A stretch of 64,000 nt of DNA, from the NCBI RefSeq assembly GCF_028435265.1, contig NZ_JAGTJK010000012.1, positions 102,900-166,899 of the forward strand, written 5' to 3'. Of this stretch, positions 2,054 through 60,300 are shown in pieces. The position numbers were made by a program, and so were the translations under genes. The notes beneath the pieces were generated by a model. The model saw only the letters and a list, made by a program, of their open reading frames with translations. It had not been told where the DNA came from and ran no database searches. Each line of letters opens with the position of its first letter. The stretch's first letter is position 1. The DNA is from Polyangium jinanense. GTDB taxonomy: Bacteria; Myxococcota_A; Polyangia; Polyangiales; Polyangiaceae.

Positions 2054-2057
2054 ATGC

Positions 2058-2197: not shown

Positions 2198-2235
2198 CGC
2201 GACCAGCTGCACGAACACATATCAATTGTTCAGTG

Positions 2236-2793: not shown

Positions 2794-2803
2794 TGATCGT
2801 CTG

Positions 2804-2832
2804 CCCAGCGCCGCTACCCAAGCGGCGCTGGG
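2804..2832 (+). terminator. Perfect 12-bp stem hairpin after the small lipoprotein ORF
   Basis: CCCAGCGCCGCT, loop accca, then AGCGGCGCTGGG, starting 10 nt after the TAA stop. Its 3' arm overlaps the start of direct repeat B. Confidence 0.55.
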
Positions 2833-3047: not shown

Positions 3048-3279
3048 GACGGTGCTGAAGCTCGCGGTGAACCGCAACAAGAACGAGCTCATGTGCAACG
3101 CATACGCGAACTACATGAACAAGTGGCTCGTGACCCCGATGTTCATCCTGCCAAACCCGCAGAAAGCCGCGCCGTACCCGTGTGCGACGACGGGCTGCAA
3201 GGACGCGTCGGGCGCCTCCGTTTCGTGCGTGAACGAGGTGGGTGAGGGGATCCCGGATCAGATGGATACGGTGTTCTGA
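3048..3279 (+). pseudogene. 3' fragment of the HAD phosphatase gene (last ~76 codons)
   Basis: Encodes TVLKLAVNRNKNELMCNAYANYMNKWLV(T)PMFILPNPQKAAPYPCATTGCKDASGASVSCVNEVGEGIPDQMDTVF. It is fused in the ORF track (2836..3279) to the antisense of the TPR fragment, so the ORF is a chimera with no HAD catalytic motifs. Confidence 0.85.
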
Positions 3280-3294
3280 TCGCGGAAACGAAAA

Positions 3295-3320
3295 GGGAGG
3301 GCTCCGCGCGGGGCCCTCCC
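3295..3320. terminator. Second copy of the GC-rich hairpin (between the HAD fragment and the intact FGE gene)
   Basis: Same sequence as 1774..1799, offset by 1521 bp. Confidence 0.45.
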
Positions 3321-3327
3321 CGGGTGT

Positions 3328-4371: not shown

Positions 4372-4548
4372 CGGCGTACGCGTCGCTCACCGAGAAGACG
4401 ATGAGCTCGCGGGCCTCGGCATTGCGACCGATCCAGGTGAGGCGCTCCTTGCCGGACGCCGGAGGCTGGTTCGTGTGGCCGCCAGCCCAGGCAATGCCCG
4501 TGAGCGCGATGTTGGGATCACCGACCGCGAGCAAGCCCGCGCGCGCAC
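4331..4548. repeat. Direct repeat B, copy 2 (218 bp; covers the TPR gene 3' end and the FGE gene 5' end)
   Basis: See 2830..3047. Confidence 0.9.
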
Positions 4549-9343: not shown

Positions 9344-9375
9344 GGGACCTTGATCCTTTGCTCCAGAGTCGTGGC

Positions 9376-25396: not shown

Positions 25397-25397
25397 C

Positions 25398-25916
25398 ATG
25401 GAAATCACAGACCGCGGAGAACCTTTGAGCGAGCAGGCCCTCCGAGAGTTGGAGGAGAAGCTCGGCGTGCGCCTGCCCGAACCCTATCGCCGGTTTTTGC
25501 AAGAGTACAATGGAGGCCGGCCAGACCCGGACATACTCGACATCGCCGGAGCCCCCTTCAAGGGCGCGGACGTCCACGTATTCTTTGGCCTAGGACGAGA
25601 GTACGAATCCGAGGATCTCTTGTGGAACAATGAGGACTGGAAGCGGCCCAGCTTGGGCAATGATGTCCTCGCAATCGCGTGTGATTCAGGCGGAAGCCTC
25701 TTCGGCATCGTCACCGAGGGGGAGCAGCGAGGCCGCGTGTACTATTTCGACTACTATGCGGACTGGGAGCCCTACTTCGTCGCCAGCGACTTCGACGCGT
25801 TCCTCCAGAAACTGCGAGCGTGGACGCCCGAGGAGCTAGCCGAGATCAAAAAGCTCGCGGCGGAGAACGCGGCGGCGAACGCCGCGGAGCTTGACCCCGA
25901 CAAACCTGCCGAGTAG
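25398..25916 (+). CDS. SMI1/KNR4 (SUKH-1) family immunity protein
   Basis: The ATG lies 1 nt after the toxin stop, preceded by gaaggggaga. LSEQALRELEEKLGVRLPEPYRRFLQEYNGG...VLAIACDSGGSLFGIV...GRVYYFDYY...FVASDFDAFLQKL is the classic SUKH-1 pattern. Confidence 0.8.
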   Translation: MEITDRGEPLSEQALRELEEKLGVRLPEPYRRFLQEYNGGRPDPDILDIAGAPFKGADVHVFFGLGREYESEDLLWNNEDWKRPSLGNDVLAIACDSGGSLFGIVTEGEQRGRVYYFDYYADWEPYFVASDFDAFLQKLRAWTPEELAEIKKLAAENAAANAAELDPDKPAE

Positions 25917-45296: not shown

Positions 45297-45686
45297 TCAG
45301 GGCACCTGCACCGTGACCTGCCCGGGGAACGAGATCTGAATCACCCCGCCCCACATGCACATCAGCTTCGAGCTGTTGTTCAGCGCGGGCATGTTCGCGA
45401 GCAGCACCGTTGGGGCACCGACGATCCACGGCGCCGGCGTGTTCGGAATGCACGGCATTGGCGTGAGCACGCCCATCGCCGCCGCCGTCGCCGCGGCCAC
45501 CGTCGGGTTCGCCAGGCTCTGACACATCCCGAACGGCAGCACGTTCAGCATGGGCTTGCCGTCCATGATGTTCGCCAGCGGCCCCGCGCTGTTCATCGTC
45601 CGGTTCGCGGGAAGCACCGTGAGCGAGCTCGGCGCCACGCCGAAGCTGCATTGCATCATCGCCCCCATGCATACGTGCTGGCCCAT
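45297..45686 (-). CDS. DUF4280 (PAAR-like) spike-tip protein, stand-alone
   Basis: 129 aa. GAMMQCSFGVAPSSLTVLP...NVLPFGMCQSLANP...PCIPNTPAPWIVGAPTVLLANMPALNNSSKLMCMWGGVIQISFPGQ matches the DUF4280 pattern (C.FG...L.V...FG.C...C.P...W...C..GG.I.I...GQ). It is the last gene of the vgrG operon. Confidence 0.8.
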   Translation of the reverse strand: MGQHVCMGAMMQCSFGVAPSSLTVLPANRTMNSAGPLANIMDGKPMLNVLPFGMCQSLANPTVAAATAAAMGVLTPMPCIPNTPAPWIVGAPTVLLANMPALNNSSKLMCMWGGVIQISFPGQVTVQVP

Positions 45687-45688
45687 CG

Positions 45689-46441
45689 TCAGCCTCCCGC
45701 GAGCTTGTTCACGACCTTGTCGAAGAAGGACTCTTTTTTCTCCTCCTTCGCCTTCGGAATGCCCTTGTCGTCGTACTCGACCTCGCCGCGCTTCTCGCCG
45801 TCCTTGTACGTCGCCTTCGCCTTCAGCTTGCCCTGCACGTCGTAGCTGAACGCGTCGCCTTGCTTCTTGCCGTTGTCATAGATGGCGCGCTCGCGGACCT
45901 CGCCGTTCGGGAAGTACTCGATCACCTCCCCGTGCAGTTTGTCGGCCTTGTAGCTCGCTTTGCGCAGGGTGTTGCCCTTGCCGTCGAGGAACAAGGATTC
46001 CCCTTCGAGCTTGCCGTTCTTGTAGAACGACCGGACGACCTCGTTGCCCTGCTCGTCGAACGACATGAACGGGCCGTTCTGCTTGCCCTTCTCGAAATGC
46101 ATGAGCGTCCGGAGCCGGCCGTCGTCGTAGAGCCGCGTCGGCCCGTGCTGCTCGCCCTTCGCGAACGTGACGATCTGCGAGACCTTGCCGTTCTCGTCTA
46201 CGATCTTCGTCTCGCCGTGGAGCACGCCGTCCTGGAATGACGAACGCTCGACCTCGCGTCCTTCCGGATCGTACGTGATCGACAAACCGTGCAGCTTGCC
46301 GTTCTTGTAATTCGCCCGGTGCGCGATCTGCTTTTCGGTCTCCCCGTACTGGACGAACTCGCCGTGGAGCACGCCGTCTTCCATCTCGAACCGGGAGATC
46401 AGCTTGCCGTTCTCGTCGCGCTCTTCGTGGTCGGTCGGCAT
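45689..46441 (-). CDS. MORN-variant repeat protein (YwqK-family-like)
   Basis: 250 aa with ~9 repeats of the form Y.NGK.HG....Y...G (NYKNGKLHGLSITYDPEG, FQDGVLHGETKIVDENG, FYKNGKLEGESLFLDGKG, YKADKLHGEVIEYFPNG...) and a Lys-rich tail. It lies between vgrG and the DUF4280 gene with 10- and 2-nt spacers. Confidence 0.75.
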   Translation of the reverse strand: MPTDHEERDENGKLISRFEMEDGVLHGEFVQYGETEKQIAHRANYKNGKLHGLSITYDPEGREVERSSFQDGVLHGETKIVDENGKVSQIVTFAKGEQHGPTRLYDDGRLRTLMHFEKGKQNGPFMSFDEQGNEVVRSFYKNGKLEGESLFLDGKGNTLRKASYKADKLHGEVIEYFPNGEVRERAIYDNGKKQGDAFSYDVQGKLKAKATYKDGEKRGEVEYDDKGIPKAKEEKKESFFDKVVNKLAGG

Positions 46442-46451: not shown

Positions 46452-48452
46452 CTAATTGATCTTCACCATGCCGCCCTTCAAGGTCAGCATGCCGCCGCCC
46501 TCCACCGCCGCCTGCGCGCCGCCCTTCGCCTTCAGCGCGATCGCGCCCTCGAGCGTCATGTTCGTCCCGCCCTTGGCCTTGAAATCGGTGCCGGCCTTCA
46601 GGTCCATCGCCGTCCCGGACTCGGCCTTGAAATCCGTGCCCGCCTTCATCGAAAACGCCTGCTTGGCCTTGATCGTGACGCTCTTCGCCTCGATCACGAG
46701 GTCGCCGTCGACCTTGATCGTGTAGTTCTTCGTCACCTTGTAATCGAGGTTCGCCTTGTTCGTGTGCGCCTCGTCCTTGGTGACCGTGAGCGTGCGTTTG
46801 CCCTTCACGCTGTGCGTCTCGTCGCCCTTGTCGACCTTGATCGTGCGGTTGCCCTTGGTGACCGTGAGCGTCTCGTCGCCCTCCTCGATCGTCACCTTCC
46901 GCTCGTTTTTGACGTTCTTCGTGTAATCGTGGAGGACCTTGACCGTCCAGTCGTTCTCCACCTCGAAGAGCATGTCCTTCTGGGCGTGCGCGTAAAACTC
47001 CTCGTTATCCTTCTTGTCGTCGAAGCGCAGTTCGTTCCCCGCCTCGCCCTCCTTCGACGATCGGCTCAGGATCGTGCTCTTCGTCTGCGCGCCCGGCAGC
47101 CCATAAGGCACCGTCTGCTCGGCGTTGTACACCGAGCCCGTCACGAGCGGCCTGTCCGGGTCGCCGTCGATGAAGCTCACGACGACCTCCTGCCCGATGC
47201 GCGGCAAGAACCACGCGCCCCAGCTCTTGCCCGCCCACGCCTGCACGACGCGCACGAAGCACGAGCTCTTGTCGTCCTTCGCGCCCTTGCGATCCCAGTG
47301 GAACTGGACCTTGATGCGCCCGTATTCGTCGGTCCACTGCTCCTCGCCGCTCTTGCCCACGACGACGGCCGTCTGCGTGCCGGGGATCGCGGGCTTCGGC
47401 GTGATGCGCGGCGGGCGGTACGACGTCTTCTTCGGGAACGCCTCGAAGGTATTCGTGTACCCCTCCTGGCTTGCGCGGTGCATGATCGAGGTGAGAACCC
47501 AGTCCGTGTTCGCGTCGTCCCGATCGTGCTCGTCGAGCTTGAACGCGTGCCCCGCCGTGAAGGCGCGGCAGCTCGATGTACCCGACAAACGCACCGCCCG
47601 CGCCTCCTCGGCCTCGATGCGGAGCTTCGCGCGCGTGTCGCCCGGGCTTTTCTCGATGTGCCCGCCCGGGTACTCGAAGAGCTCGAGCTTGGCCGTTTCG
47701 CCCGAGACCTCCGCGAGCAGCGACGTGCTCGGCATCTCGAAGTTGTAATCCGTCGACGCGTACTTTCCCGCGACGATCTCCTCTTCGAGCGTGCACTCGA
47801 GGACGGCGTCCTCGTCCGTCGACGTGGAGAACTGCTCGACGAACCGCGCCTTGTCGAGGTTCGGGCACGGCGCGGCCGACGCGCTGTCGTCCGAGAGCAC
47901 CATCACGTGCTTGCCGTCCTCGTGCTTGAAATAATAATGGATCCCCTCGTCCTCCATGAGCCGCGACACGAAATCGAGCGCGGTCTCCTGGTACTGCACG
48001 CAGTAGGGGCGCGGGGTGTAGGAGCCCTTCAGCGAATCCTTGAAGTGCTCGCCCGACGAGAAGCCGAGCTCCTGGAAGAGCGCCTTCAGGATGTCGGGCA
48101 CGCTCTTCTCCTGGAAGATCCGGCAATCGCTGGTCTTGCCGAGCAGCCATAACCACGGGTGCAGCTCCGCGCGGTAACGCGTCTGCTTGCCGACGCGCCC
48201 CGCCTGGACGAACCGCGTGCAGATCCCGTGGATGAAGCGCGGCTTCTCCTTGGCCATGCCCCGGATCGTCAAGGTCACGCCCTTGCCGACGATCGCCTTG
48301 AAGTCGAGCGCCTTCTCCGGCGACAAAAGCTCGAGCTCGAAGCGGAAGAGCCCCGAGATCCGCTCTTCGCCATGCAGATCGACGAGCAGCACCGCGTCCG
48401 CGCCGAAGGGCGTCGAGATGGCGATGCCGAGGGTGCCCTGCGGATAAGGCAT
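46452..48452 (-). CDS. vgrG: T6SS spike protein VgrG (TssI), no C-terminal effector extension
   Basis: 666 aa. LLVDLHGEERISGLFRFELELLS..., YRAELHPWLWLLGKTSDCRIFQEKSVPDILKALF and RVVQAWAGKSWGAWFLPRIGQEVVVSFIDGDPDRPLVTGSVYN are followed by gp5-like beta-helix repeats (HSVKGKRTLTV.., DYKVTKNYTIKVDGDL..). Confidence 0.92.
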   Translation of the reverse strand: MPYPQGTLGIAISTPFGADAVLLVDLHGEERISGLFRFELELLSPEKALDFKAIVGKGVTLTIRGMAKEKPRFIHGICTRFVQAGRVGKQTRYRAELHPWLWLLGKTSDCRIFQEKSVPDILKALFQELGFSSGEHFKDSLKGSYTPRPYCVQYQETALDFVSRLMEDEGIHYYFKHEDGKHVMVLSDDSASAAPCPNLDKARFVEQFSTSTDEDAVLECTLEEEIVAGKYASTDYNFEMPSTSLLAEVSGETAKLELFEYPGGHIEKSPGDTRAKLRIEAEEARAVRLSGTSSCRAFTAGHAFKLDEHDRDDANTDWVLTSIMHRASQEGYTNTFEAFPKKTSYRPPRITPKPAIPGTQTAVVVGKSGEEQWTDEYGRIKVQFHWDRKGAKDDKSSCFVRVVQAWAGKSWGAWFLPRIGQEVVVSFIDGDPDRPLVTGSVYNAEQTVPYGLPGAQTKSTILSRSSKEGEAGNELRFDDKKDNEEFYAHAQKDMLFEVENDWTVKVLHDYTKNVKNERKVTIEEGDETLTVTKGNRTIKVDKGDETHSVKGKRTLTVTKDEAHTNKANLDYKVTKNYTIKVDGDLVIEAKSVTIKAKQAFSMKAGTDFKAESGTAMDLKAGTDFKAKGGTNMTLEGAIALKAKGGAQAAVEGGGMLTLKGGMVKIN

Positions 48453-48570: not shown

Positions 48571-49860
48571 ATGACGTTCTTCCGAACGGGCCATGGTCTC
48601 TTCCAGTTCGGGAGGCCGAAGCGCCTCGACAGGCACGGGATCCTCGCCTTTCTGCGCAGCGTCGCGACCGATCGTGGAGGCATGCTGGAGCTTCGGCGCA
48701 TCCTCGCCGACGAGCTGCATCGCACGTCGATCCACAACATGCGCGACGAGCTCGTGATCGAGCAGCTCGCGGACCGTTACCTGCGCGGCTCGCTCACGCT
48801 CGTCCACGTGCGCCCGCTCGACATCGGGATCGAGCTCGAGGGCTTCCTCGTCGAAGGCGCGGACGCCACGCCTTTGACCGGCCCGAAGAACGAGGCCGGC
48901 GACCTGCGCCCCGCGCCCGAGGTCCCACCCGAATATCCGGTCCTCGCGCGTGTCGAGTCCGATCAGATCATCGACTCCACGCTGAAGCTCGTCGCGAAAC
49001 TCGGCGATCTGCTCTTCGGGGCGTTTGGCCTGCAAAAACGTCCCTCGACGCTCGCGAAGGAGCTCGTGCTGCTCGCCGCCGAAGAGGCGAGCGGCGTGAA
49101 GCTCGCGAACACGAAGGTCGATCTCGATCTCGGGTTGCAACTGCATCCGCAGGGCAAGATCCTGCTGCCCGATCCGCAAGTGAAGGACGCGTACGTCGCC
49201 GCGGCGGCCGAGATCGCGGCGGGGCCGCGTCCGGCGGCAAAGGGTCTCATCGATTTGATGTGGCCGCTCACGCGGGTCGACACGAACCGCCGCTTCGACA
49301 ATCCCGTCGGGGCCGGGCCGGTGAAGAGCGATCAAAGCGACGGGAAGAAGGGCCCCGAGGCCGCGCTGGATTGGGTCGAAATCGAGCTCGTCGACGACGG
49401 CGATCCGCCGAAGCCCTACGCCGGCGCGCGGTATCGAATCGAGCTCGAGGGCGGCAAGGTGATCGAGGGGACGCTCGACGACGACGGCAAGGCGCGCGTC
49501 GATGGGATTCCGTCGGGCAGCGGGACCGTCACGTTCCCGGACATCGACGCCGGGTTTTGGGGGACGAACGGCGCAGGCAGCGCAGGCGCCGCCGCGCCGC
49601 CGCCTCCGTCTTCGTCGTCGTCCTCCGCGGTCTCCGCGGACGAGGCGTGGGTCGAGATCGAGCTCGTCGACGACGACGACCCGCCGAAGCCCCGCGCCGG
49701 CGCGCGATATCGTATCGAGCTCGAGGGCGGCAAGGTGGTCGAGGGGACGCTCGACGACCAAGGGAAAGCGCGCGTCGACGGGATTCCGTCGGGCAGCGGG
49801 ACCGTCACGTTCCCGGATATCGATGGCAGCACGTGGGGGCCGGGAGAACGAGGCACATGA
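48571..49860 (+). CDS. Hypothetical protein (~429 aa) with two copies of a ~59-aa beta-rich module; first gene of the putative effector operon divergent from vgrG
   Basis: The ATG at 48571 follows caggaagag and is in frame with track ORF 48451..49860, whose first 40 codons would overlap the vgrG start. No signal peptide. The C-terminal modules read WVEIELVDD(G/D)DPPKP.AGARYRIELEGGKV.EGTLDD.GKARVDGIPSGSGTVTFPDID. Confidence 0.65.
   Translation: MTFFRTGHGLFQFGRPKRLDRHGILAFLRSVATDRGGMLELRRILADELHRTSIHNMRDELVIEQLADRYLRGSLTLVHVRPLDIGIELEGFLVEGADATPLTGPKNEAGDLRPAPEVPPEYPVLARVESDQIIDSTLKLVAKLGDLLFGAFGLQKRPSTLAKELVLLAAEEASGVKLANTKVDLDLGLQLHPQGKILLPDPQVKDAYVAAAAEIAAGPRPAAKGLIDLMWPLTRVDTNRRFDNPVGAGPVKSDQSDGKKGPEAALDWVEIELVDDGDPPKPYAGARYRIELEGGKVIEGTLDDDGKARVDGIPSGSGTVTFPDIDAGFWGTNGAGSAGAAAPPPPSSSSSSAVSADEAWVEIELVDDDDPPKPRAGARYRIELEGGKVVEGTLDDQGKARVDGIPSGSGTVTFPDIDGSTWGPGERGT
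49372..49824 (+). repeat. Internal duplication: two 177-bp units (49372..49548 and 49648..49824) separated by a Ser/Pro/Ala linker
   Basis: The two units align colinearly without gaps, with most positions identical at the nucleotide level by eye. Confidence 0.85.
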
Positions 49861-50072
49861 GCGACGAAGTCCTTTACTCCGATCTCGGGATTCCCGAGTG
49901 GGATCCGGACCGCGAACCTGCGGCGGAGCCCGAGGCCGGCGCGTCCCCCCCGGGGCCGCCCGCGCAGGGCTCCATCGAGGATATGGGCGTGCGCTGCGTG
50001 GCGCGGTCGGCGGACGGGACACGAGCGGTGTGTACGCTCGAAGTGCTGCGGCCGTTTGTCCTGTCCGCTTGA
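49857..50072 (+). CDS. Small hypothetical protein (71 aa), start overlapping the upstream stop (ATGA)
   Basis: MSDEVLYSDLGIPEWDPDREPAAEPEAGASPPGPPAQGSIEDMGVRCVARSADGTRAVCTLEVLRPFVLSA. It is in frame within track ORF 49260..50072. The ATGA overlap suggests translational coupling. No family, signal peptide or TM was recognised. Confidence 0.4.
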   Translation: MSDEVLYSDLGIPEWDPDREPAAEPEAGASPPGPPAQGSIEDMGVRCVARSADGTRAVCTLEVLRPFVLSA

Positions 50073-50098
50073 GCTGACGACGCATCCTGGAGAACGCC

Positions 50099-53000
50099 AT
50101 GAGCAAGAAGATGCCGACGAAAGGGGTGCTCACGTTCGAGGCCGAGGGCAGCGACTCGAGCAGCTCGCCTTATTACTCGCGCGTGCTCCACCACCCGACG
50201 ATGGGGTCGGGCGTGACGATCGGCCGCGGCTACGACATGAAGGACCGTTCGTCCGCGGACGTCGAAAAAGATTTCGTCGCGGCGGGTCTGTCCGCGGATG
50301 TCGCGAAGAAGTATGCCAAAGGCGCGGGGCTCACGGGGTCCGAGGCGCGGACGTTCGTCACGAACAACAAGGGCGTCTTGCCCGAGCTCACGTGGGACCA
50401 GCAGCTCGCGCTCTTCGAGTCCACGTATGCGTGGCACGAGAAGGACGTCAAGCGCATCTGCGACAAGGAAGATTGTCAGAACATCTACGGCGTCGTGGAC
50501 TTCAAGACGCTCCACCCGCGCATCCTCGACGTGCTCGTGGATCTCAGGTTCCGCGGCGACTACACGCCCGCGTCGCGCAAGCGCATCCAGAAGCTCGTCG
50601 TCGAGAACGATTATGCGCGCTTCCGCGCGGACCTCTCCAATCGGTCGAACTGGAGCGCGGTGCCGGAGGACCGTTTCGATCGGCGGAGCAAGTACCTGAA
50701 GGACGCGCCGCAGACGGACGACACGGCCGATCACGAGGATGTGACGTACAGCACGCCGACCAAATCGTTTGACCTCAAGACGATGGGCGAGGCAGAGCTC
50801 TACGATCACCTCCGGAGCGTGTGGAAGGCGGAGCAGAAGGCGTTCGGCAACGAGGGCAAACCCGAATTCGACTTCCAGGACGAGGAGGGCCGCGTGAACC
50901 TGCTCGGCGCGCGCGGGTTCGACGCCGACCAGATGGTGCCCGTGCCGAGCACGAACACGAAATACGACGACACGCTTTTCCTCGTCTACAAGAAGGACGG
51001 CGCGAAGCACGTCGAGAAGTTCCACTACTCGAGCGAGTGGACGAGGACGGGCTCGAAGGGGGCCGTGATCATCCTCGGGCAGCACAAGTACTGCCTGGCG
51101 ATCCACAAGAAGCTCAAGGAAGACGGCACGCCCTACCCGTACAACAAGCTCCCCGCGTGGCGCGATTACTACAACACGAACAAGACGCAGCCGCCGGGAG
51201 CCGGTTACCGCGCATTGAACCCGGACCCGACGGTCGGCATCGTCCGCGTGCACGATGCAAGCGCGGCAGGATCCGTGGGCGCTGAGACCACGGGGGTCAC
51301 GCAGAACGCCTCGATCAACATCCATTACGGCGGCGAGGTGCCGAGCGGCTGGACGCCCAGCAAGGGGTGGTCCGACGGGTGCCAGGTCCTCATGCGCGGC
51401 GACCGGTACCTGCGGTTCATGGAGGTCATCGAGTCCGATCACTCCCTGAAGGGCACGATCAACAACGAGCTCGCGCCCAAGCCTTCGGCCGACGGGAAGC
51501 GGTCGCTCATCTACACGCTCGTCAAGGGCGACTCCCTCGCGCCGAGGGACGCGCCGTCCATGGGGTTCCCCGTGGACATCGGCAAAGGGAAGAAGATCGA
51601 CAATTCGACCACGCTCGCGATGTTCGAGCACACCGAGAAGACGATCGACAGCGGCTATTTCCCTCTCGGGACGAATACGACCTGGCACGGCGGCGCCCAT
51701 TTGCACGTCGCCGAGGGGACCGCGGTCCACGCGATGTTCGACGGGCGGATCGTCGCCGCGCGGCTGCCCGCGGCGGCGGACAAATCGAAGGGGGCCTTCG
51801 GCAGCAGGAACTTCATCCTGATCCGGCACGAGATCGACGGGGATCGCTTGAACAAGGCGAATGCCCTGCTCAAGCGCACCCTCATCGGGTACACGATCCG
51901 CGCCGAGACGCTCGTGCTCCGCAAGGAGCCGGGCAACGCCGCGGCCGTCGTCGATACCTTGAAGGTGGGCGACGAGGTGCTGCTGAAGACCGTCCCCCAT
52001 CCGAAGAAGGACGGCGTCTCGTGGGCGCACGTCGTCGTTTCCAAATCGGCGAAGGAAGGCCTGAAGGACAAGGTCGGCTATGTGGCCGCCACGTCCTTGC
52101 TCGTCACGCCCAGGTACGCGCCGCCGAAGGAGCGCGTGAAGCCGTCCGAGACGCGGGTGGTGTATTCGCTCTACATGCACCTCGGGCCCCAGGCGCTCGA
52201 CACGACGAACTCCGTCCTCGCCTCGATCCCCTGGGTCTCGGGGGCGCAGTGGAGCGTGTCGGACGACGTCCGGCTCCGCAGCGCGCCGGGCGTCCCGGAT
52301 CCGGACAAGACGCAGATCGGTACGCTCGTCTCCGGCGACACGTTCGTGCAGCTCACCCCCGACCTCGTGACCGCGGGGAGTTATCAGTGGATGAAGGTCC
52401 GCGTCACCAAGGCGAAAGACGCGAAGCTCGCGAACAAGGAGGGGTTCGTCGCGAAGCTCGACAAACGCATGAGCCTCACGAAGGCGCCGAGCGCGGAGAT
52501 CCTCGACAAGCTCAAGTCCGGCGACGTGGTCAAGCTCGACAAACCGGTGGTCGCGGGGGAGCAGATCTGGACGGCGGGCACGATGACGGGGGCCTCGGGT
52601 GGGGCGCAGGCGGGCATTCACTGGGAGGTCTTCTCGGAGCAGCCCCTCTTCCCGGACTGGCCGTCCGCCGACGATCCCGACGAAAATCTGAACATGGACG
52701 TGAAGAAGATTTTCGACATGATCGAGCAGGAGTTCTGGGGGTACAACGACACGATCTCCGCGTCCGAGCTGAACGATTTCTACAAGAACAATCCCAAGGC
52801 GAAATCGCTGCGATACTACGCGTGCCGGTTCATGAGCGAGTGGGGCTGCGACATCGACAAGGCCGTCGCGCAGATCCAATCGAGGGGGCTCTACAGCGTC
52901 TCGGGGCTCGCCGACAAGATGCGGCCCTACCTGTGGTGGAAGGAGGCGGAGGGCAAGAAGGTGGAGCTGCCGAAGAGCCCGATCGTCTGGCACTACAACC

Positions 53001-53986
53001 CGATCGGGTTCGTCTACGCGATGACCAAGATCGAGGAGACCCCCGCCCCGCGCACCGAGCCGGCGCAGACGAAGGAGGATCCGAAGGTCGCCACGGAGAC
53101 GCAATGGTCCGGCGTCGCGTACGGCGATTACGTGCTGAAGAAGGGCGACGACGACGGCAAGCAGACCTGGGGCGGCCTCGCGCGCAAGGAGAAGGGCACA
53201 TACGTGGTCGAGCTGCAGAAGGATCTGCTCGAGCTCGGCTACTGGATCAGCGCCGCGAGCTCGAACAAGGGGATGAACGCCGACGGCAATTTCGGCGGCA
53301 CGGTGCGCGGCGCCGTCATGCTCTTCCAGCGCGAGCACGGGTTGAAGGAGACGGGGGAGGTCGACGCGGCGACGGCGAAGCTCATCAAGGAAAAGACGAA
53401 GGTAGCGAACTACGAGCGGCCCGGGCACAAGGCGGGCGATTACGGTCAGTTTTATCAGCTCCCGCCTTCGGAGAACTACGAGCGGTACGACGAGGTGCGC
53501 GACGACAATTGCATCCCGAAGGACAACTGGGGCACGAAGGAGATGATCAAGATGCTCACCTCCGCGGGCAAGGCCTGGAAGGAGCAAGGAAAGTCGCTGT
53601 TCCTGGTCGGGGACGTCTCGCTCTACAACGGTGGCAAGATGGACCCGCACAAGTCCCACCAGGACGGCACCGGCGTGGACCTCGACTCCGATGAGCTGTG
53701 CAGCATCAACCGGGCGACGTTCAAGAAAGAGGAGTCCCTGTCGCTCACGCAGCTGCTCATCAAGCACGGCGCGAAGCGCGTCCTCTTCAATTGCAAGTAC
53801 GTGACCGACCAGGTGCCCGAGGCGTTCGCGTTATCGGGGCACCACCACCATTACCACGTCGACGTGAAGCCGGGGCTGAAGACGAACGAGCACCCCGAGG
53901 AGGAGTGCAAGTGGTGCCACAAGTCGGTGTACAAGAAGTGCGACTACGCCAAGAAGGCGAAGCGCTCGGACTCGGAGCTCACCTGA
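50099..53986 (+). CDS. Multi-domain peptidoglycan-hydrolase protein (1295 aa), candidate T6SS antibacterial effector
   Basis: No signal peptide. Modules read by eye, in order:
- A lysozyme/pesticin-like N-terminus (FEAEG...GVTIGRGYD, ~50100-50700).
- A region with INIHYGG...WSDGCQV (~50900-51500), reminiscent of the YkuD-fold H...(S)xGC active site.
- An M23/LytM-like domain split by two SH3b-like inserts (WHGGAHLHVAEGTAVHAMFDGRIV, FILIRHEIDG, YSLYMHLGP, AGIHWEVF; ~51660-52650).
- PG_binding_1 (VVELQKDLLELGYW...DGNFGGTVRGAVMLFQREHGLKETGEVD, ~53190).
- A MepA/LAS-type metallopeptidase (DPHKSHQDGTGVDLD ... GHHHHYHVD, ~53500-53900). Confidence 0.8.
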   Translation: MSKKMPTKGVLTFEAEGSDSSSSPYYSRVLHHPTMGSGVTIGRGYDMKDRSSADVEKDFVAAGLSADVAKKYAKGAGLTGSEARTFVTNNKGVLPELTWDQQLALFESTYAWHEKDVKRICDKEDCQNIYGVVDFKTLHPRILDVLVDLRFRGDYTPASRKRIQKLVVENDYARFRADLSNRSNWSAVPEDRFDRRSKYLKDAPQTDDTADHEDVTYSTPTKSFDLKTMGEAELYDHLRSVWKAEQKAFGNEGKPEFDFQDEEGRVNLLGARGFDADQMVPVPSTNTKYDDTLFLVYKKDGAKHVEKFHYSSEWTRTGSKGAVIILGQHKYCLAIHKKLKEDGTPYPYNKLPAWRDYYNTNKTQPPGAGYRALNPDPTVGIVRVHDASAAGSVGAETTGVTQNASINIHYGGEVPSGWTPSKGWSDGCQVLMRGDRYLRFMEVIESDHSLKGTINNELAPKPSADGKRSLIYTLVKGDSLAPRDAPSMGFPVDIGKGKKIDNSTTLAMFEHTEKTIDSGYFPLGTNTTWHGGAHLHVAEGTAVHAMFDGRIVAARLPAAADKSKGAFGSRNFILIRHEIDGDRLNKANALLKRTLIGYTIRAETLVLRKEPGNAAAVVDTLKVGDEVLLKTVPHPKKDGVSWAHVVVSKSAKEGLKDKVGYVAATSLLVTPRYAPPKERVKPSETRVVYSLYMHLGPQALDTTNSVLASIPWVSGAQWSVSDDVRLRSAPGVPDPDKTQIGTLVSGDTFVQLTPDLVTAGSYQWMKVRVTKAKDAKLANKEGFVAKLDKRMSLTKAPSAEILDKLKSGDVVKLDKPVVAGEQIWTAGTMTGASGGAQAGIHWEVFSEQPLFPDWPSADDPDENLNMDVKKIFDMIEQEFWGYNDTISASELNDFYKNNPKAKSLRYYACRFMSEWGCDIDKAVAQIQSRGLYSVSGLADKMRPYLWWKEAEGKKVELPKSPIVWHYNPIGFVYAMTKIEETPAPRTEPAQTKEDPKVATETQWSGVAYGDYVLKKGDDDGKQTWGGLARKEKGTYVVELQKDLLELGYWISAASSNKGMNADGNFGGTVRGAVMLFQREHGLKETGEVDAATAKLIKEKTKVANYERPGHKAGDYGQFYQLPPSENYERYDEVRDDNCIPKDNWGTKEMIKMLTSAGKAWKEQGKSLFLVGDVSLYNGGKMDPHKSHQDGTGVDLDSDELCSINRATFKKEESLSLTQLLIKHGAKRVLFNCKYVTDQVPEAFALSGHHHHYHVDVKPGLKTNEHPEEECKWCHKSVYKKCDYAKKAKRSDSELT

Positions 53987-53990
53987 GCCG

Positions 53991-54665
53991 CTAGAGCCCG
54001 TACACCTTCGCGAGCGCCTTCTGCGTCGTCGCGTCGTACTTGCCCGTCACGGAGATCTTTTCGGCGCGCTGGAAGGCCTCGATCGCCGCGGTCGTCGCCT
54101 CGTCGAGCGTGCCGCTCGGCTCGTCGGCATGAAGCCCGAGGTTCTTGAGGCGCGTTTGCGCCCCGCGGATCGTGTCGATCGGCTCGAGCTCGCCGAGCGC
54201 GAGCTTGTACGTTTGTCGCCGGTTCGGCAGCTTCAGCACCGCCTCGGCCTGATCCGCCGGCACCTCGGCTTCCAGTGTCCCGTCGTCCCCTGTCGTCCCC
54301 TCGAGCTTGCGCTCGCCGCACTCGATCTCCCAGGGCTCGTTCGCGAGCGGCTCCTGGCCCGCGGTGAGCTTCAGGTAGACCCGGACCTTTTCGCGCTTGA
54401 CCACGAACCTGTGCGACTTGCCCGTCTCGATCGGCGACGGCTTCGGCTTCGGCTGCGGCACCGTCACCTTGTCGCCCGGCGCGAGCACGTTCGGATCCTT
54501 GCGCAGCTTGCGCAGCGCCGCGTTCTCCGGCGCCTCCCATACCGTCTTCCACGGAAGACCGTATTTCGCCGCGATCGTCGCGATGCACTCCCCCGCCTGG
54601 ACGTCGTGTGTCGTGCCTGCCATGGCGATTCCCAGGCGATGATACACGTCGCGCTGTCCGATCAC
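53991..54665 (-). CDS. LysM plus PG_binding_1 peptidoglycan-binding protein with a central beta-rich module
   Basis: The LysM domain reads THDVQAGECIATIAAKYGLPWKTVWEAPENAALRKLRKDPNVLAPGDKVTVP. The C-terminal IRGAQTRLKNLGLHADEPSGTLDEATTAAIEAFQRAEKISVTGKYD is PG_binding_1-like. A GTG at 54665 overlaps the upstream stop (GTGA); an alternative ATG is at 54623. No signal peptide. Confidence 0.75.
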   Translation of the reverse strand: MIGQRDVYHRLGIAMAGTTHDVQAGECIATIAAKYGLPWKTVWEAPENAALRKLRKDPNVLAPGDKVTVPQPKPKPSPIETGKSHRFVVKREKVRVYLKLTAGQEPLANEPWEIECGERKLEGTTGDDGTLEAEVPADQAEAVLKLPNRRQTYKLALGELEPIDTIRGAQTRLKNLGLHADEPSGTLDEATTAAIEAFQRAEKISVTGKYDATTQKALAKVYGL

Positions 54666-56206
54666 TCCATCAAAAAGCCCATCCGCGCAAAGCGCAGGAG
54701 CTTCTGCTCGGTGATCTCGGCGAACACCTCCGCATCCGTGCAGGGCGCGCCGTTCATCTCCACCGACACCACACAGCGACGCGCGTCCTCGAGCGCCGCC
54801 TCCGTGAGCGCCGAAGCGTCACGCGTCCCATCCATGCGCGCGAGGATCGCCCGATCGAACGTGTCGACCTGCACGCCCTCGTGCAGGAGCGTGGTGCAAA
54901 ACGGGCTGCCCACGCTCGCCTGATAACGCGCGAACGGGAAGACGCGCGGGCGCTCGGCGGGCGCCTGGGCCACGGGCTTTGGCGAGGCCCAGAGCCGGAT
55001 CGCGCCTTTCGTGTAGAGCCCGAGGAGGTTTCGCGCGAGCCGCGCCCGCGCCTCGCCCTCGAACGCCGCGAGCCCGAGCTTCTCGCCGGTTTGCCACGCG
55101 AGCGCGTCGAACGGGAGCCCGCCGGGCGTGTATTCGGAGAGCGTGACGAGCGCGGCCTTGAGCGTGGCCTGATCGGTGCCGATCGCCCCGCCTGGCCCGA
55201 TGAACGTTTCCTCCACGCCCTCGGCGAGGTTTGGCGCCGTGACCCCCGGCGCGAGCGGCGAGGCGAGCACGAGCGAAAAGATTCGATCGGCCGAGACGCG
55301 GGGCGAGAGCGGGGCGTCGTCGCGGCAAAGGACGGCGCGGCGAAAACACCGGAGCTCGAGGAGGTCGAGCGATTGCTGGAGGGAGACGAGGTCGCCACTG
55401 CCTGCCCGCGCCCGGACGGCCTCGTCGGCGGCGGGCCCGAGGCGCTCGGGAAACACGAGCGGCACGTGGGCGTCGGTGACGAACGCGAGCCCCGCGCCTT
55501 CCATGTCGCGGACGAAGTCGGCGAAATACTCGGCGTGGTTGTTCGGGGCGAGGTGCTCACCGATCAGGTAGTGGTCCGAGAGCTCGGCGAGGGTTTGCAG
55601 CTCGCTCGCGAGCCAGGCGCGCGTGGGATCGGAGCCTGTGGCCTCGGTGCCGAGGAAACGCAAAAAAGCGCGCGCCTTCGCGACGCGCTCGGCGGCGGAT
55701 CCTTCCGTGCCGACCTCACGCCGTAGCATGTCGCGGATCGCGCCGCGCAGGTGCCAGCCGGGCAAGGTATTGAAGCTGATGTAGGCGAGGCCGTGGGGCG
55801 CGAGGTGCCGGCGGACGACGCGGCGAATGGCTTCGCGGGCGTCGTCGGGGACCCACGAGTAGACGCCGTGGCAGACGATGTAATCGAAGGAGCCGGGTTC
55901 GTCCTCGAATTCGCGGATGTCGGCGAGGTGGAGGGCGAGGTTTGCGAGCCGGGCGCCCTCGGCGTGTTTTCGAGCGACGGCGAGCGAGTCTTCGGCGCGA
56001 TCGAGGGCGACGAAGCGGCTCTCGGGGAAGGCGGCGGCCATGGGAAGGACGTTGCCGCCGGTGGCGGTGCCGATCTCGAGGACGCGGCATCGAGCGGGCG
56101 GGGCGGGCCGGAGGCCAAAGAGGACGCCGATCGCGCCGAGGTGGTCGGGGTGCGTCTCGGCGAAGGGCAGGGCCTCGTAGAAATAATCCTCGTTCGCGTC
56201 GGCCAA
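54662..56206 (-). CDS. Class I SAM-dependent methyltransferase fused to a C-terminal methyltransferase-regulatory-type domain (~514 aa)
   Basis: Track ORF 54662..56902 is trimmed; its first ~230 codons are the antisense of the coiled-coil gene. A TTG at 56206 is preceded by GGAGGA with a 5-nt spacer. YEALPFAETHPDHLGAIGVLFGLRPAPPARCRVLEIGTATGGNVLPMAAAFPESRFVALD is motif I (E.G...G). The C-terminal ~300 aa resemble the predicted methyltransferase regulatory domain family. Confidence 0.75.
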   Translation of the reverse strand: MADANEDYFYEALPFAETHPDHLGAIGVLFGLRPAPPARCRVLEIGTATGGNVLPMAAAFPESRFVALDRAEDSLAVARKHAEGARLANLALHLADIREFEDEPGSFDYIVCHGVYSWVPDDAREAIRRVVRRHLAPHGLAYISFNTLPGWHLRGAIRDMLRREVGTEGSAAERVAKARAFLRFLGTEATGSDPTRAWLASELQTLAELSDHYLIGEHLAPNNHAEYFADFVRDMEGAGLAFVTDAHVPLVFPERLGPAADEAVRARAGSGDLVSLQQSLDLLELRCFRRAVLCRDDAPLSPRVSADRIFSLVLASPLAPGVTAPNLAEGVEETFIGPGGAIGTDQATLKAALVTLSEYTPGGLPFDALAWQTGEKLGLAAFEGEARARLARNLLGLYTKGAIRLWASPKPVAQAPAERPRVFPFARYQASVGSPFCTTLLHEGVQVDTFDRAILARMDGTRDASALTEAALEDARRCVVSVEMNGAPCTDAEVFAEITEQKLLRFARMGFLME

Positions 56207-56312: not shown

Positions 56313-57233
56313 ATGGATGGGCTCTCGTTGATTCTGGTCGCGGTGGTCTGCGCGCTCGCGCTCGTGATCGGAGTGCTTTTGCGATCACGAGGCGCGCTCG
56401 CGCGGGAGCTCGGGGCCGCGCGGGAAGAGGCGCGGGCGCTCGGGAAAGCCGCCGCCGAGGCGAAGCGGGCTCTGCCGCAGGCGGAGGCGGAAGCGGGAGC
56501 GGCGGCGGCAGCGGAGGCGGCGGCGGCAGCGGAGGCGGCGGCGGCAGCGGAGGCGCGCGCGAGATCCGCGGAGCTGGAAAGCGAGCTCCGGGAAGCGCGC
56601 GAGCGGTCCGAAGAGCTGTCCCGAGTGGTCGGGGAGGCGCGCAAGAGCGCCGAAGAGCTGTCCCGAGACGTCAGGGAGGCGCGCAAGAGCTCCGAAGTGC
56701 TGTCCCAAGAGGTCGGGGAGGCGCAAAAGAGGTCCGAAGAGCTGTCCCGCGACGTCGGGGAGGCTCGCAAGAGCTCCGAAGCGCTGTCCGGAGAGCTCCG
56801 GGAGGCGCGCGCAAGGGCCGAGGCGCTCGAACGTGAGCTCGCCGAGGCCCGCAGCAAGACCGATGACAGGGGAGGGGACCTCGCCGCCGCGATGCGCCGC
56901 ATCGAGGAGCTTTCGCGCGCCTATCGGCAAGCCGAGCAGGACGTCGAGGCCCTCTCGATACAAAAGGACGCCTTTGCCGCCGAGGTGCGCGCCCTCAGGG
57001 ACGAACTCGAGCGCCGCAAGAAGGCCGCGGAGGCCGCAGCCGCCGTCGAAGGAAAACCGCTCGCCGCGCCGCCGTCCCGGCAGCCAGCCAAGAAGCCGCC
57101 GCCGCCCGAGCCTATCACCGCGTTTTTCTGTCTCATTTGCGGGGAGGGGAGCTCGGGGGCAAAGCCGCACCGCTGCCTCGTCGAGGAGGCGGAGCTCGCG
57201 AAGAAGAAAGCTGCGGCGACAGTGAAGCGGTAG
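56313..57233 (+). CDS. Membrane-anchored coiled-coil protein with 14-aa tandem repeats and a C-terminal Cys/His cluster (~306 aa)
   Basis: ATG at 56313 (MDGLSLILVAVVCALALVIGVLL is the TM anchor). An (AAAAEA)3 tract is followed by 7 repeats of the form EELSRDVGEARKSS. The C-terminus reads FFCLICGEGSSGAKPHRC. Confidence 0.65.
   Translation: MDGLSLILVAVVCALALVIGVLLRSRGALARELGAAREEARALGKAAAEAKRALPQAEAEAGAAAAAEAAAAAEAAAAAEARARSAELESELREARERSEELSRVVGEARKSAEELSRDVREARKSSEVLSQEVGEAQKRSEELSRDVGEARKSSEALSGELREARARAEALERELAEARSKTDDRGGDLAAAMRRIEELSRAYRQAEQDVEALSIQKDAFAAEVRALRDELERRKKAAEAAAAVEGKPLAAPPSRQPAKKPPPPEPITAFFCLICGEGSSGAKPHRCLVEEAELAKKKAAATVKR
56568..56861 (+). repeat. Seven in-frame 42-bp tandem repeats
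   Basis: The units start at 56568, 56610, 56652, 56694, 56736, 56778 and 56820. An example is gaagagctgtcccgagacgtcagggaggcgcgcaagagctcc. Confidence 0.85.
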
Positions 57234-57346: not shown

Positions 57347-60300
57347 ATGACGCGGCGGACCGGGTACTCCTTGCTGGGGCTCTTGATGGCGGCGATGACC
57401 ATCCTGAGCTGCACCACGATCCTCGGCATTGATACCGAGAGCGACGAGAACCCGTGCAGCGCCGGGGACCTGCCGCCGCTCGAGTGCGGCGTCGGCGCCT
57501 GCCGCACGATCCGGCCCGCGTGCGTGAACGGCCTGCCGATGACCTGTCCGCCCGTCGACTCCCAGGCCGACGAGATCTGCGACGGCATCGACAACAACTG
57601 CGACGGGCTCATCGACGAGGGGTGTCCCTGCATGGAAGGGGCGGTCCAGAGTTGTTATAGCGGCGCGCCCCTCACCCGGAACGTCGGTATCTGCGTCACC
57701 GGCATCCAGACCTGCACGAACGGCATCTGGCTCGATTGCACCGGCGAGGTGCTACCGGGCCTCGAGAACTGCGACGACAGCTTCGACAACGATTGCAACG
57801 GCAAGGTCAACGACAACTGCGCCTGCACCGAGGGGCAGACCCGCAAGTGTTACGGCGGCCCGCCGATCACGCAGGGCGTCGCGAACTGCAAGGAAGGTGA
57901 TCAGACCTGCCTGAACGGCTTCTGGGGCGACTGCAAGGCGGACGTCATCCCCGGCGGCGAGGTCTGCGACGGCGTCGACAACAACTGCGATGGCGCCATC
58001 GACGAGATTTCCGGCTGCGAGTGCTCCGGGGATCAGACGAAGGAGTGTTACACGGGCGACGACAAGTTCGTCGGCATCGGCGTCTGCAAGAAGGGGTATT
58101 ACCCCTGCAAGGGCGGCAAGTTCGACGAGACGAAGTGCCTGACCGAGGTGCTCCCCGGCGCCGAGGTCTGCAATGGCCTCGACGACGATTGCAACGGCCT
58201 GCCCGACGACGCGATGGGCCTCGGCCTCGATTGCACGACGAAGCTGCCCGGCATCTGCAAGTTCGGCAAGACGGATTGCGGCATCGACGAGGAGACGGGC
58301 AAGCCGGGCACGATCTGCACGCCCGACGTCAAGCCCTTCCAGAACCCCGAGCAGGGCTGCAACCTGGTCGACGACAACTGCGACGGCGTCATCGACGAGG
58401 GCGTCCTCTGCTGCCCGGAAGACGGCATTCAGAACGGCAGCGAGACCGACGTCAACTGCGGCGGCACCTGCGTGATCAAGTGCCCCGACGGCAAGAAGTG
58501 CAACACGGGCGACGACTGCGTCTCGCAGGTCTGCGTGAGCGGCATCTGCGTCGGCGACACGTGCGACGACGCGACGGAGAACGGCACGGAGACGGACGTC
58601 GATTGCGGCGGCTCCGCCTGCCCCGGCTGCCAGCCCACGAAGAACTGCGAGTACGGGTCCGACTGCCTCTCGAACGTGTGCGTCGGCGGCAAGTGCCAGG
58701 CGCCGACCTGCTTCGACGGCGTGGAGAACGGTAACGAGAGCGACAAGGACTGCGGCGACGCCTGCAAGCCTCTGCTCTGCGTCAACCTCCAGAATTGCAA
58801 CAGCGCGCTCGATTGCGTGAGCCTCTCCTGCAAGGACAAGGTCTGCCAGGCGGCGACCTGCGGCGACACCACGAAGAACGGCAGCGAGACGGACATCGAT
58901 TGCGGCGGTGGCCAGTGCCAGGGCTGCGGCACGGGGCAGGGCTGCAACGTCGGCGCCGATTGCAAGGAGAAGGTCTGCGGGGCGAACAAGACGTGCCTCG
59001 CGCCGACGTGCACCGACAGCGCGGCGAACGGGCAGGAGACGGACGTCAACTGCGGCGGCCCCGACTGCGTCGCCCGCTGCGACACGGGCCAGAAGTGCCT
59101 CGTGGCGACCGACTGCCAGAGCAAGATCTGCACGAACAACATCTGCGCCCCCTCGCAGTGCACGGACTTCGTGCAGAACGGGACCGAGACGGACGTCGAT
59201 TGCGGCGGCGGTTGTCCGGAGAAATGCGACCCGTCCGAGAAGTGCAAGACCAACGTCGACTGCAAGAGCGACGTCTGCACGGGCGGCATCTGCCTTTCGC
59301 CGACCTGCTCGGACAACAAGAAGAACGGCGCCGAGACGGACCTCGACTGCGGCGGCCCGTGCGTGCAGGAGCAGAAGAAGTGCTCGGACGGCAAGCAGTG
59401 CCAGTTCGCCGGCGACTGCCAGAGCGGCGTCTGCACGGGCGGCATCTGCGTGCCCGCGCAGTGCAACGATCAAACGAAGAACGGCAACGAGACGGACATC
59501 GACTGCGGCGGCGGCCTGCCCTGCCAGGCCTGTGACATCGGCAAGAATTGCCTGAACGCCATCGACTGCAAGACGAACATCTGCTCGGCCGGCAAGTGCG
59601 CGCCGAAGCCGATCGGCGAGTTCTGCCTCTCGGCGCTCGAGTGCGCGAGCGGCAACTGCGTCGACGGGTTCTGCTGCAACAGCTCCTGCGACGGCACCTG
59701 CTTCGCGTGCTCGGCCGCCAAGAAAGGCCAGGGCAACAACGGCTTCTGCCAGGCGATCGTCGGCAACGCCGATCCGGACAACGAGTGCGCGTCGGACAAC
59801 CCGAGCAGCTGCGGCAACACGGGCTTCTGCAACGGCGCCGGGGCGTGCGCGAAATACAGCAATAGCGTCGAGTGCGTGGTGGCGACGTGCAAGGACATCA
59901 CGACGGCGAAGCTGCCGCAGTTCTGCAACGGCAACGGCGCGTGCCTGACGAGCGCCGAGCAGTCGTGCGTGCCGTACACGTGCAGCGCCGGCCAGTGCAA
60001 CACGAGCTGCGCGATCGACGCGCAATGCGCGGGCGGGTACTACTGCAACAATAGCCAGTGCATTCCGAAGGGCACCATCAGTTCGTCGTGCCAGACGAAC
60101 AACCAGTGCGCGAGCGGCAACTGCGTCGACGGCGTCTGCTGCGACTCGGCCTGCACGGGCACCTGCTACGCGTGCTCGGCGGGCAAGAAGGGCCAGGGTA
60201 GCGACGGCATCTGCGGGCCGGTCGTGAACAACGGAGACCCCGACAACGAGTGCGCGACGACGTCGATCGCGAGCTGCGGGACGACGGGCGTCTGCGACGG

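Follow-up and report, generated by a model that had tools for sequence, protein, structure and literature searches.

Type VI secretion system (T6SS) effectors with a WHIX secretion domain are defined by a WHxxxH motif, and subclass II of this class, the 'double-blade' effectors, carries toxic domains on both sides, including pesticin-like lysozymes as well as M23, MepA-like and M15 peptidases (PMC12135965). Double-blade effectors need two immunity proteins, and the same survey found signal-peptide proteins to be the products of the 'vast majority' of genes located right beside the toxic domains (PMC12135965). In TseP of Aeromonas dhakensis, the N-domain is a Zn-dependent amidase (PMC11893102). 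Regarding the loading of such cargo, a survey of 130,825 vgrG loci listed LysM and PG_binding_1 among six families that occur either fused to VgrG or toxins or as separate proteins; a stand-alone LysM protein of Ketobacter alkanivorans was non-toxic, and co-immunoprecipitation revealed that it is needed for binding of the downstream effector to VgrG (PMC10673891). Here, we analysed a stretch of 64,000 nucleotides of Polyangium jinanense (contig NZ_JAGTJK010000012.1, positions 102,900 to 166,899, forward strand; hereafter the window) that contains a putative double-blade effector of 1295 amino acids (aa) next to a vgrG gene. A dedicated periplasmic immunity gene is absent from this module and from eight related myxobacterial loci. 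We propose, with a probability of roughly 0.6, that the region from 48.5 to 54.7 kb is a vgrG-linked cargo module in which the neighbours of the effector act as loading factors, rather than an effector-immunity pair.

The genes of the window, which has a G+C content of ~68%, were chosen by G+C content at third codon positions (GC3) and homology. The module starts with a gene for a 429-aa protein (48571..49860, plus strand), whose start was set by homologues beginning with MTFFRTGHG. It is followed on the same strand by genes for a 71-aa protein (49857..50072) and for the effector (50099..53986), which is 100% identical to a P. jinanense protein. A 210-aa LysM protein is encoded on the minus strand (53991..54623), starting at an ATG 14 codons inside a 224-aa open reading frame (ORF) with a GTG start, in agreement with homologues of 207-214 aa. 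Next comes a methyltransferase gene. The gaps between these genes are −4 nt (429-aa and 71-aa genes), 26 nt (71-aa gene and effector), 4 nt (convergent stops of the effector and LysM genes) and 38 nt (LysM and methyltransferase genes), which leaves no room for an unannotated gene in 48571..54665. The first of these values reflects an ATGA overlap of the start of the 71-aa gene with the stop of the 429-aa gene; the two genes are translationally coupled.

The 1295-aa protein had been predicted to be a T6SS peptidoglycan-hydrolase effector, which agrees with its domains, its homologues and the T6SS core next door. Five segments with approximate borders can be distinguished. A pesticin-like lysozyme domain (aa 1-205, nt 50099..50713) shows a weak match to Pfam Pesticin (aa 36-91) and is ~40-47% identical to TseP-like homologues. 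The following domain (aa 216-500, nt 50744..51598) comprises 285 aa with invariant His and Cys residues (NIHYGG...WSxGCQV) and is shared by no fewer than 24 wall-hydrolase effectors with a multidomain architecture. The centre is formed by a WHIX/TseP-N M23-like core with SH3 inserts (aa ~505-1000, nt 51611..53098), for which weak Pfam Peptidase_M23 (aa 530-577) and SH3_3 matches were obtained. Its WHGGAH motif (aa 529-534) aligns with WHGGIH and WHGGVH of homologues from Aeromonas and Stutzerimonas (BLASTP E=2e-10 and 7e-8), which have the same pesticin-like lysozyme domain at the C-terminus, while the second WHIX region is represented by collinear weak BLAST pieces only (YSLYMHL, HWEVF, ...SEW, WHxxP). 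A PG_binding_1 domain (aa 1033-1095, nt 53195..53383; Pfam 4e-12) precedes a C-terminal LAS peptidase of the M74/M15-like type (aa 1141-1290, nt 53519..53968; Pfam Peptidase_M74 at aa 1141-1216, 2e-7) with the H..D ... HxH pattern typical of LAS enzymes. The protein is rich in lysine (9.3%) and has no export signal. Since it combines the WHxxxH motif with toxic domains on both sides of the WHIX/TseP-N region, its sequence fits a WHIX-class, TseP-like effector of the double-blade subclass. The His/Cys domain is possibly a new catalytic domain. The order of its His and Cys residues suggested a YkuD-like L,D-transpeptidase, an assignment that we set aside as hypothetical, as there was no Pfam match and no PDB match, the latter with either the single sequence or a 13-sequence profile.

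One of the closest described systems in terms of architecture is Awe1 of Aeromonas jandaei (Fridman et al. 2025, PMC12135965). Like the Polyangium effector, it lacks a signal peptide, has a vgrG neighbour in a T6SS-bearing genome and carries the WHxxxH motif within an M23-like module in its centre, flanked on either side by domains directed at peptidoglycan; pesticin-like lysozymes and M15/MepA-like peptidases are among the types listed in that paper. The Polyangium effector differs by the additional His/Cys domain, the SH3 inserts and the PG_binding_1 domain. Furthermore, Awe1 caps VgrG's C-terminal tail directly, whereas the Polyangium effector is accompanied by a LysM protein, a beta-domain protein and a small acidic protein. 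WHIX loci reported so far carry signal-peptide immunity genes (AwiU/AwiD), in contrast to the Polyangium module, and the hosts listed (PMC12135965) are proteobacterial orders, while the host described here belongs to the Myxococcota. With TseP (PMC11893102) the effector shares the combination of an M23-like Zn-amidase with a pesticin/lysozyme-like domain and probably the character of a VgrG-dependent cargo, but the order is reversed with the lysozyme domain at the N-terminus, and the protein is much larger with extra modules.

To search for an exported immunity protein, we used a self-written scan for signal peptides and lipoboxes. Between 45.0 and 57.4 kb, each possible start codon of all ORFs with 35 or more aa was checked for a lipobox or for an N-region with positive charge ahead of a hydrophobic core; calls were based on this heuristic and on reading of the N-termini. 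Between 48.4 and 56.2 kb, the only candidates with coding-like GC3 were short ORFs antisense to the effector gene, and a hidden signal-peptide ORF near the effector was therefore rejected. The 429-aa, 71-aa and 210-aa proteins show no signal peptide, lipobox, transmembrane (TM) segment or N-terminal hydrophobic stretch, and their maximal 19-residue Kyte-Doolittle values (1.17, 0.67 and 0.53, respectively) are all below 1.6. A similar heuristic with somewhat different cut-offs, applied to the whole window, recovered the TssJ candidate, TssM and a 2092-aa lipoprotein. Gap lengths and ORF scan, which included small unannotated ORFs, thus bear out the original prediction that no periplasmic immunity gene adjoins the effector and that its three neighbours lack export signals. 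A TM-anchored coiled-coil protein of 306 aa encoded further downstream (56313..57233, plus strand) was also considered as an immunity protein and rejected, as it is kept beside the methyltransferase.

For comparison, the fetched Aeromonas locus has the order Hcp, VgrG, 856-aa TseP-like effector and a 118-aa ORF that overlaps the effector stop and encodes a signal-peptide protein (N-terminus MQIKSSLLVLFLFFSLHANA). A tblastn search of the window with this protein gave no match at E<=10, so that, unlike in the TseP-TsiP system, no TsiP homologue is present in the window. Beside the effector homologues of the related loci, no credible signal-peptide ORF was found in L001-L005, L010 and L011, and none in L091. 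The only nearby secreted protein in L012 (Chondromyces) is a 510-aa signal-peptide protein convergent to the effector; it is an alpha/beta-hydrolase and was consequently rejected as an immunity protein. The missing immunity gene is unusual rather than a matter of chance, because the vast majority of flanking genes in the WHIX survey and a gene of the Aeromonas TseP-like locus encode signal-peptide proteins, and because the same window keeps an adjacent toxin-immunity pair 5' of the T6SS core. This pair consists of overlapping plus-strand genes for a 526-aa protein with a C-terminal WHH/colicin-DNase domain (23816..25396) and for a SUKH-1 (SMI1/KNR4) immunity protein (25347..25916).

The related loci also reveal how the module is arranged elsewhere. 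In L001, L002, L010 and L011, which stem from Polyangium-like assemblies, one strand carries in order the genes for the methyltransferase, a giant lipoprotein with MopE motifs, the LysM protein (210 aa), a small acidic ORF (94-98 aa) and the effector, and the other strand a 331-515-aa homologue of the 429-aa protein, followed by vgrG, a MORN gene and a DUF4280 gene. The distant, metagenomic locus L005 has a LysM protein (207 aa), a 67-aa ORF and a 994-aa effector in the same sequence, so that LysM gene, small ORF and effector are co-directional in all five of these loci. Compared to L001, L002, L010 and L011, the segment 49857..53986 with the small ORF and the effector is inverted in the window. 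This local inversion explains both the convergent orientation of the LysM gene and the ATGA overlap of the small ORF with the 429-aa gene. The convergent orientation noted in the original prediction therefore holds for the window but not for its relatives, in which the LysM gene lies upstream of the effector in the same direction. Two other Polyangium species (L004 and L091) have a different WHIX effector (~1700 aa) in the same place without a LysM gene or small ORF, and the counterpart of the 429-aa protein in these species has 280 aa and no C-terminal repeats.

The 210-aa protein contains a PG_binding_1 domain (Pfam 2.6e-12). Its AlphaFold2 (AF2) model, with a predicted local distance difference test (pLDDT) value of 86, comprises LysM, an Ig-like beta-sandwich and PG_binding_1, hence LysM-Ig-PGB in the following. 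The LysM part is an N-terminal beta-alpha-alpha-beta unit that matched LysM domains in Foldseek (5k2l, 4uz2). Foldseek returned domain-level matches only (SleB N-domain, invasin/intimin Ig, LysM), and there was no match to an NCBIfam family; we thus rejected the possibilities of a component of an extracellular contractile injection system (eCIS) or phage baseplate and of a known immunity protein. A scan for the family with one genome per species yielded 80 loci in at least eight phyla (Acidobacteriota, Planctomycetota, Hydrogenedentota, Verrucomicrobiota, Gemmatimonadota, Thermodesulfobacteriota, Poribacteria and Myxococcota). VgrG is encoded in 36 of the 69 loci that have at least 2.5 kb of upstream sequence. 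Its gene precedes the LysM gene on the same strand at a distance of up to 7 kb in 32 of the 69 and is the immediate neighbour in 23. What follows the LysM gene varies strongly and includes genes for several unrelated families of 550-920 aa, zincin-like proteins, a protein with an NlpC/P60 end, an amidohydrolase-like protein and WHIX hydrolases, and in some loci a PAAR gene comes next. The LysM-Ig-PGB homologues thus precede unrelated cargo families and do not co-vary with one toxin domain. Conservation between vgrG and polymorphic cargo is the arrangement of an adaptor or co-effector and not of an immunity gene.

By analogy with Ketobacter, the 210-aa protein is most likely a VgrG-effector recruitment factor. 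The Ketobacter protein Kalk_10460 belongs to a family of small LysM proteins encoded between vgrG and cargo, and the Polyangium gene also lies in a vgrG neighbourhood; Kalk_10460-type proteins are non-toxic and linked mainly to lysozyme-like, NlpD/M23 and NlpC/P60 toxins (PMC10673891). The two were likened by description only, and the Polyangium protein differs in combining LysM, Ig-like and PG_binding_1 parts within 210 aa. Its family is, unlike Kalk_10460, tightly coupled to a CnaB/TTR-like beta-domain on VgrG, PAAR or a separate protein. Moreover, PG_binding_1 was gamma-proteobacterial only in that survey (PMC10673891), whereas LysM-Ig-PGB proteins occur in Acidobacteriota, Planctomycetota, Myxococcota and others.

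Two further arrangements were observed within the family. In ~15 loci of Acidobacteriota and Planctomycetota (L028, L029, L038, L040, L053, L058, L062, L067, L069, L070, L072, L073, L075, L079), a gene that starts within the last 4 nt of the LysM-Ig-PGB gene encodes a paralogue-like protein of 170-197 aa that has a beta-domain and PG_binding_1 but no LysM; it is located at nt ~10600..11190 in most of these loci and at other offsets in L053, L070 and L075. Locus L006 (Planctomycetota) contains two tandem units (2051..12974), each composed of a beta-domain protein (129-145 aa), a LysM-Ig-PGB protein and a variable protein (693 and 747 aa). The 747-aa protein ends in an NlpC/P60-like motif, and no vgrG was called in the 18.6 kb covered.

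In the 429-aa protein, a helical N-region that is specific to Polyangium is followed by two CnaB/TTR-like beta-domains (nt 49366..49563 and 49639..49842). The beta-domain of ~65 residues follows the pattern W[IV]E[IV]EL[VL]D...G..Y.[IV]...G....G.[LT][DN]E.G.A.[IV].G[IV]..G...[IV].FP..D...W, and a hidden Markov model (HMM) of it matches the two repeats at 9e-29 and 6e-30. AF2 modelled them as two confident CnaB/Ig-like sandwiches, for which Foldseek found CnaB/Ig folds and, weakly, the VgrG-Tle1 complex (6sjl_A). The same domain is the C-terminal extension of VgrGs directly upstream of LysM-Ig-PGB genes, forms proteins of ~130 aa upstream of the LysM gene and was also found in database entries for PAAR and VgrG proteins. 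According to the HMM, it is encoded immediately upstream of the LysM gene, as VgrG extension or ~130-aa protein, in 37 of 79 loci. In all seven Polyangium-type loci, the beta-domain copies track the LysM and small-ORF genes, with 2, 1, 1, 2 and 3 copies where both genes are present and 0 and 0 where both are absent. The 429-aa family as such accompanies vgrG irrespective of the effector type and does not co-vary with the toxin domain. The VgrG of the window is short and without a C-terminal extension domain (its end is ...LTLKGGMVKIN), and we infer that the 429-aa protein is a detached VgrG/PAAR C-terminal extension supplied in trans. This would resemble the TTR-type extension of VgrG1 of enteroaggregative Escherichia coli (EAEC) in complex with Tle1 (PDB 6SJL), a small beta-sandwich on the spike that selects cargo, with the differences that the Polyangium domain is present in two copies on a separate protein, that the match is to a generic CnaB/Ig fold and that binding is presumed.

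The 71-aa protein is acidic (13 D/E versus 5 K/R), has a long disordered N-terminus and matches nothing in Pfam or NCBIfam. Small ORFs of seven loci share its C-terminal ~32 residues (MGVRxVARSAxGTxVxNTIEVLxPFExS). In six of these loci (the window, L001, L002, L005, L010 and L011) they are located immediately upstream of the effector, while the small ORF of L022 comes straight after the LysM gene. Because this C-terminal block is shared by the small ORFs of related loci, the 71-aa ORF is a real gene and a conserved partner of this type of effector. If a cytoplasmic neighbour holds the enzyme inactive before export, as the original prediction had considered, the 71-aa protein is the sole remaining candidate and a possible one.

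Based on these data, we propose the following loading model, a reading of the three neighbours that the original prediction had not considered. The effector has no export signal and would be harmless in the cytoplasm of the producer. The N-region of the 429-aa protein may attach to the short 666-aa VgrG or to the DUF4280 tip, and its two beta-domains would replace the C-terminal extension that is borne by VgrG or PAAR in other phyla. The LysM-Ig-PGB protein would dock on a beta-domain and bridge it to the effector, and the 71-aa protein could be an effector-specific partner, either a chaperone or a placeholder in the WHIX cavity. The complex would then be fired into the prey, where the LysM, PG_binding_1 and SH3 modules could hold it on the sacculus. 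For self-protection, the producer would have to rely on an unlinked gene or on a mechanism that differs from classical immunity proteins.

Several points weigh against this model. The order VgrG, 429-aa protein, LysM protein and effector is deduced from gene neighbourhood alone, and the N-region of the 429-aa protein gave a low-confidence model, no informative fold match and no PDB sequence match. WHIX effectors studied so far bind the C-terminal tail of VgrG directly and without a LysM factor (PMC12135965). About half of the LysM-Ig-PGB loci have no VgrG within 10 kb, and in L005 there is no T6SS gene within 10 kb of the LysM, small-ORF and effector trio. With Pfam LysM, the 224-aa ORF reaches 17.5 bits and the 210-aa protein 17.8 bits, which is below the gathering threshold of 20.9. 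LysM and PG_binding_1 bind peptidoglycan, so that a role in the target is equally compatible with them as one in loading. Finally, signal-peptide detection was heuristic, and the analysis covered 64 kb of the genome.

The latter point leads to the first alternative, an unlinked immunity gene in the ~12-Mb genome (of the DUF1311/LprI-, PliC/MliC-, Tai- or TsiP-like type) or immunity conferred by the giant 2092-aa lipoprotein, which we regard as rather unlikely. Orphan and unlinked immunity genes are well known. The 2092-aa protein (57347..63625, plus strand; lipobox MAAMTILSC, Pfam Cu-binding_MopE) is the only lipobox protein near the module, and in L001 and L002 its gene has the orientation of the LysM gene and is located directly upstream of it. 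The lipoprotein is syntenic in L001, L002, L004, L011 and L091 and evolves fast, with ~35% identity to these homologues versus 60-91% for the adjacent methyltransferase, which suggests a rapid diversification of a surface protein. Nevertheless, it has no inhibitor-like domain, and L003 and L005 lack it although they encode this type of effector; we therefore rejected it as the linked immunity protein. No gene for an inhibitor of the above types is present in the 64-kb window either, and an effector with three or four hydrolase modules would require more than one unlinked immunity protein, all of them kept separate in at least eight related loci, which would be unusual (PMC12135965).

Alternatively, a dedicated immunity protein may not be needed at all, if the effector is used against prey only and kin is spared by regulation, target recognition, wall chemistry or stress responses. 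In other species, protection against T6SS wall effectors that does not depend on immunity proteins is documented. The absence of signal-peptide genes beside the effector in the window, L001-L005, L010, L011 and L091, with the alpha/beta-hydrolase as the only secreted neighbour in L012, is in line with this explanation, as are the wall-binding modules (LysM, SH3 and two PG_binding_1), which resemble those of lysins directed against foreign walls. Intoxication by kin nevertheless appears to be a real selective pressure, given that a WHH and SUKH pair is present in the same cluster, and a report on Myxococcus xanthus (PMC5801462) describes its T6SS as acting on siblings. Overall, we consider this explanation rather unlikely as well.

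A third alternative concerns the LysM-Ig-PGB protein, which could be a co-secreted co-effector that binds the peptidoglycan of the prey and retains or orients the cargo there, instead of a loader. The structure prediction indicates two bona fide peptidoglycan-binding folds and no toxicity domain, and such domains must be secreted where they are fused to VgrG (PMC10673891). On the other hand, many of the partner cargos are apparently not directed against the wall and have cytoplasmic-looking immunity genes, for instance zincins with helical-repeat partners, and the published data show a loading role (PMC10673891). As the sole function this is doubtful, and the two roles are compatible.

The least probable explanation is that the 71-aa protein is a cytoplasmic inhibitor ('pre-export immunity') that blocks the WHIX/M23-like amidase cavity or a different catalytic site. 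Peptidoglycan precursors in the cytoplasm would be protected in this way until loading, and the inhibitor might travel with the effector. Its conservation in seven loci, immediately 5' of the effector in six, its acidic character next to a lysine-rich effector, its position, in which double-blade WHIX effectors have their upstream immunity gene AwiU (PMC12135965), and the precedent of TseP, in which one small protein inhibits both domains (PMC11893102), all speak for it, but without an export signal it cannot protect the periplasm of a sister cell under attack, it is absent from the WHIX loci L003, L004, L012 and L091, no homology to an immunity family was found in Pfam or NCBIfam, and a chaperone or tether would be just as consistent with a long disordered N-terminus and a short motif at the C-terminus.

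The surroundings of the module are consistent with a function in type VI secretion. A complete T6SS core is encoded on the plus strand between 27.7 and 41.6 kb, with genes starting at 27693 (TssJ candidate), 28174 (TssK), 29528 (TssL), 30280 (TssM), 34341 (TssA), 35594 (TssB), 36115 (TssC), 37721 (Hcp), 38252 (TssE), 38725 (TssF) and 40317 (TssG). A ClpV gene was not found in the 64-kb window. The core, vgrG and the DUF4280 gene adjoin the effector module, with core and vgrG within 20 kb. The spike operon on the minus strand comprises vgrG (46452..48452; Pfam Phage_GPD 3.5e-97, Gp5_trimer_C and Phage_base_V; NCBIfam TIGR03361 3.8e-183), which is divergent from the effector operon with 118 nt between its start and 48571, as well as the genes for a MORN_2-repeat protein and for the spike tip. 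The MORN_2 (YwqK-like) protein (250 aa, 45689..46441; Pfam MORN_2 1.4e-18), encoded between vgrG and the PAAR-like gene, has no export signal and is kept with vgrG in L001, L002, L004 and L091; it is conserved in all Polyangium-type loci. The DUF4280 PAAR-like tip protein (129 aa, 45297..45686) was identified by Pfam DUF4280 (1.1e-35) and by an IglG-type PAAR-like NCBIfam family (3.1e-17). Between tssG and the DUF4280 gene lies a plus-strand gene for a 1225-aa protein with apolipoprotein-like helical repeats (41612..45289), which is not present at the equivalent place in L001 and was not detected by tblastn in the fetched loci. The WHH/SUKH-1 pair is preceded by a 1235-aa ORF (20018..23725) without a Pfam match. 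On the other side of the module, the PKMT-like methyltransferase (514 aa, 54662..56206, minus strand; Pfam Methyltransf_25, MethyTransf_Reg and PKMT_2nd) had been called as a 746-aa ORF that overlaps the divergent 306-aa gene. Homologues of 513-527 aa in L001, L002 and L004 (60-91% identity), which are syntenic with the module, point to a TTG start at 56206. The methyltransferase is probably outside the mechanism.

In a broader and clearly speculative reading, which we regard as unlikely at present, a whole myxobacterial clade of WHIX double-blade effectors would lack classical immunity, and LysM-Ig-PGB protein and beta-domain would form a widespread, undescribed coupling pair. Kin protection may then be provided by the 71-aa protein as a co-delivered or pre-export inhibitor, by the dependence of the effector on its loading complex or by features of wall or regulation, and the coupling pair may span Acidobacteriota, Planctomycetota and Myxococcota.

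Taken together, the analysis turns the anomaly of a wall toxin with three neighbours and no antidote into a testable model, in which a cargo would be mounted on a short VgrG via detachable parts. It extends WHIX effectors and, as a candidate mechanism, LysM-assisted recruitment to the Myxococcota and to poorly studied phyla, and the pairing of beta-domain and LysM-Ig-PGB protein could serve as a genomic marker for new effectors. The loci would represent a conserved exception to the rule of an effector with adjacent immunity, which bears on the question of how predatory, social bacteria spare their kin.

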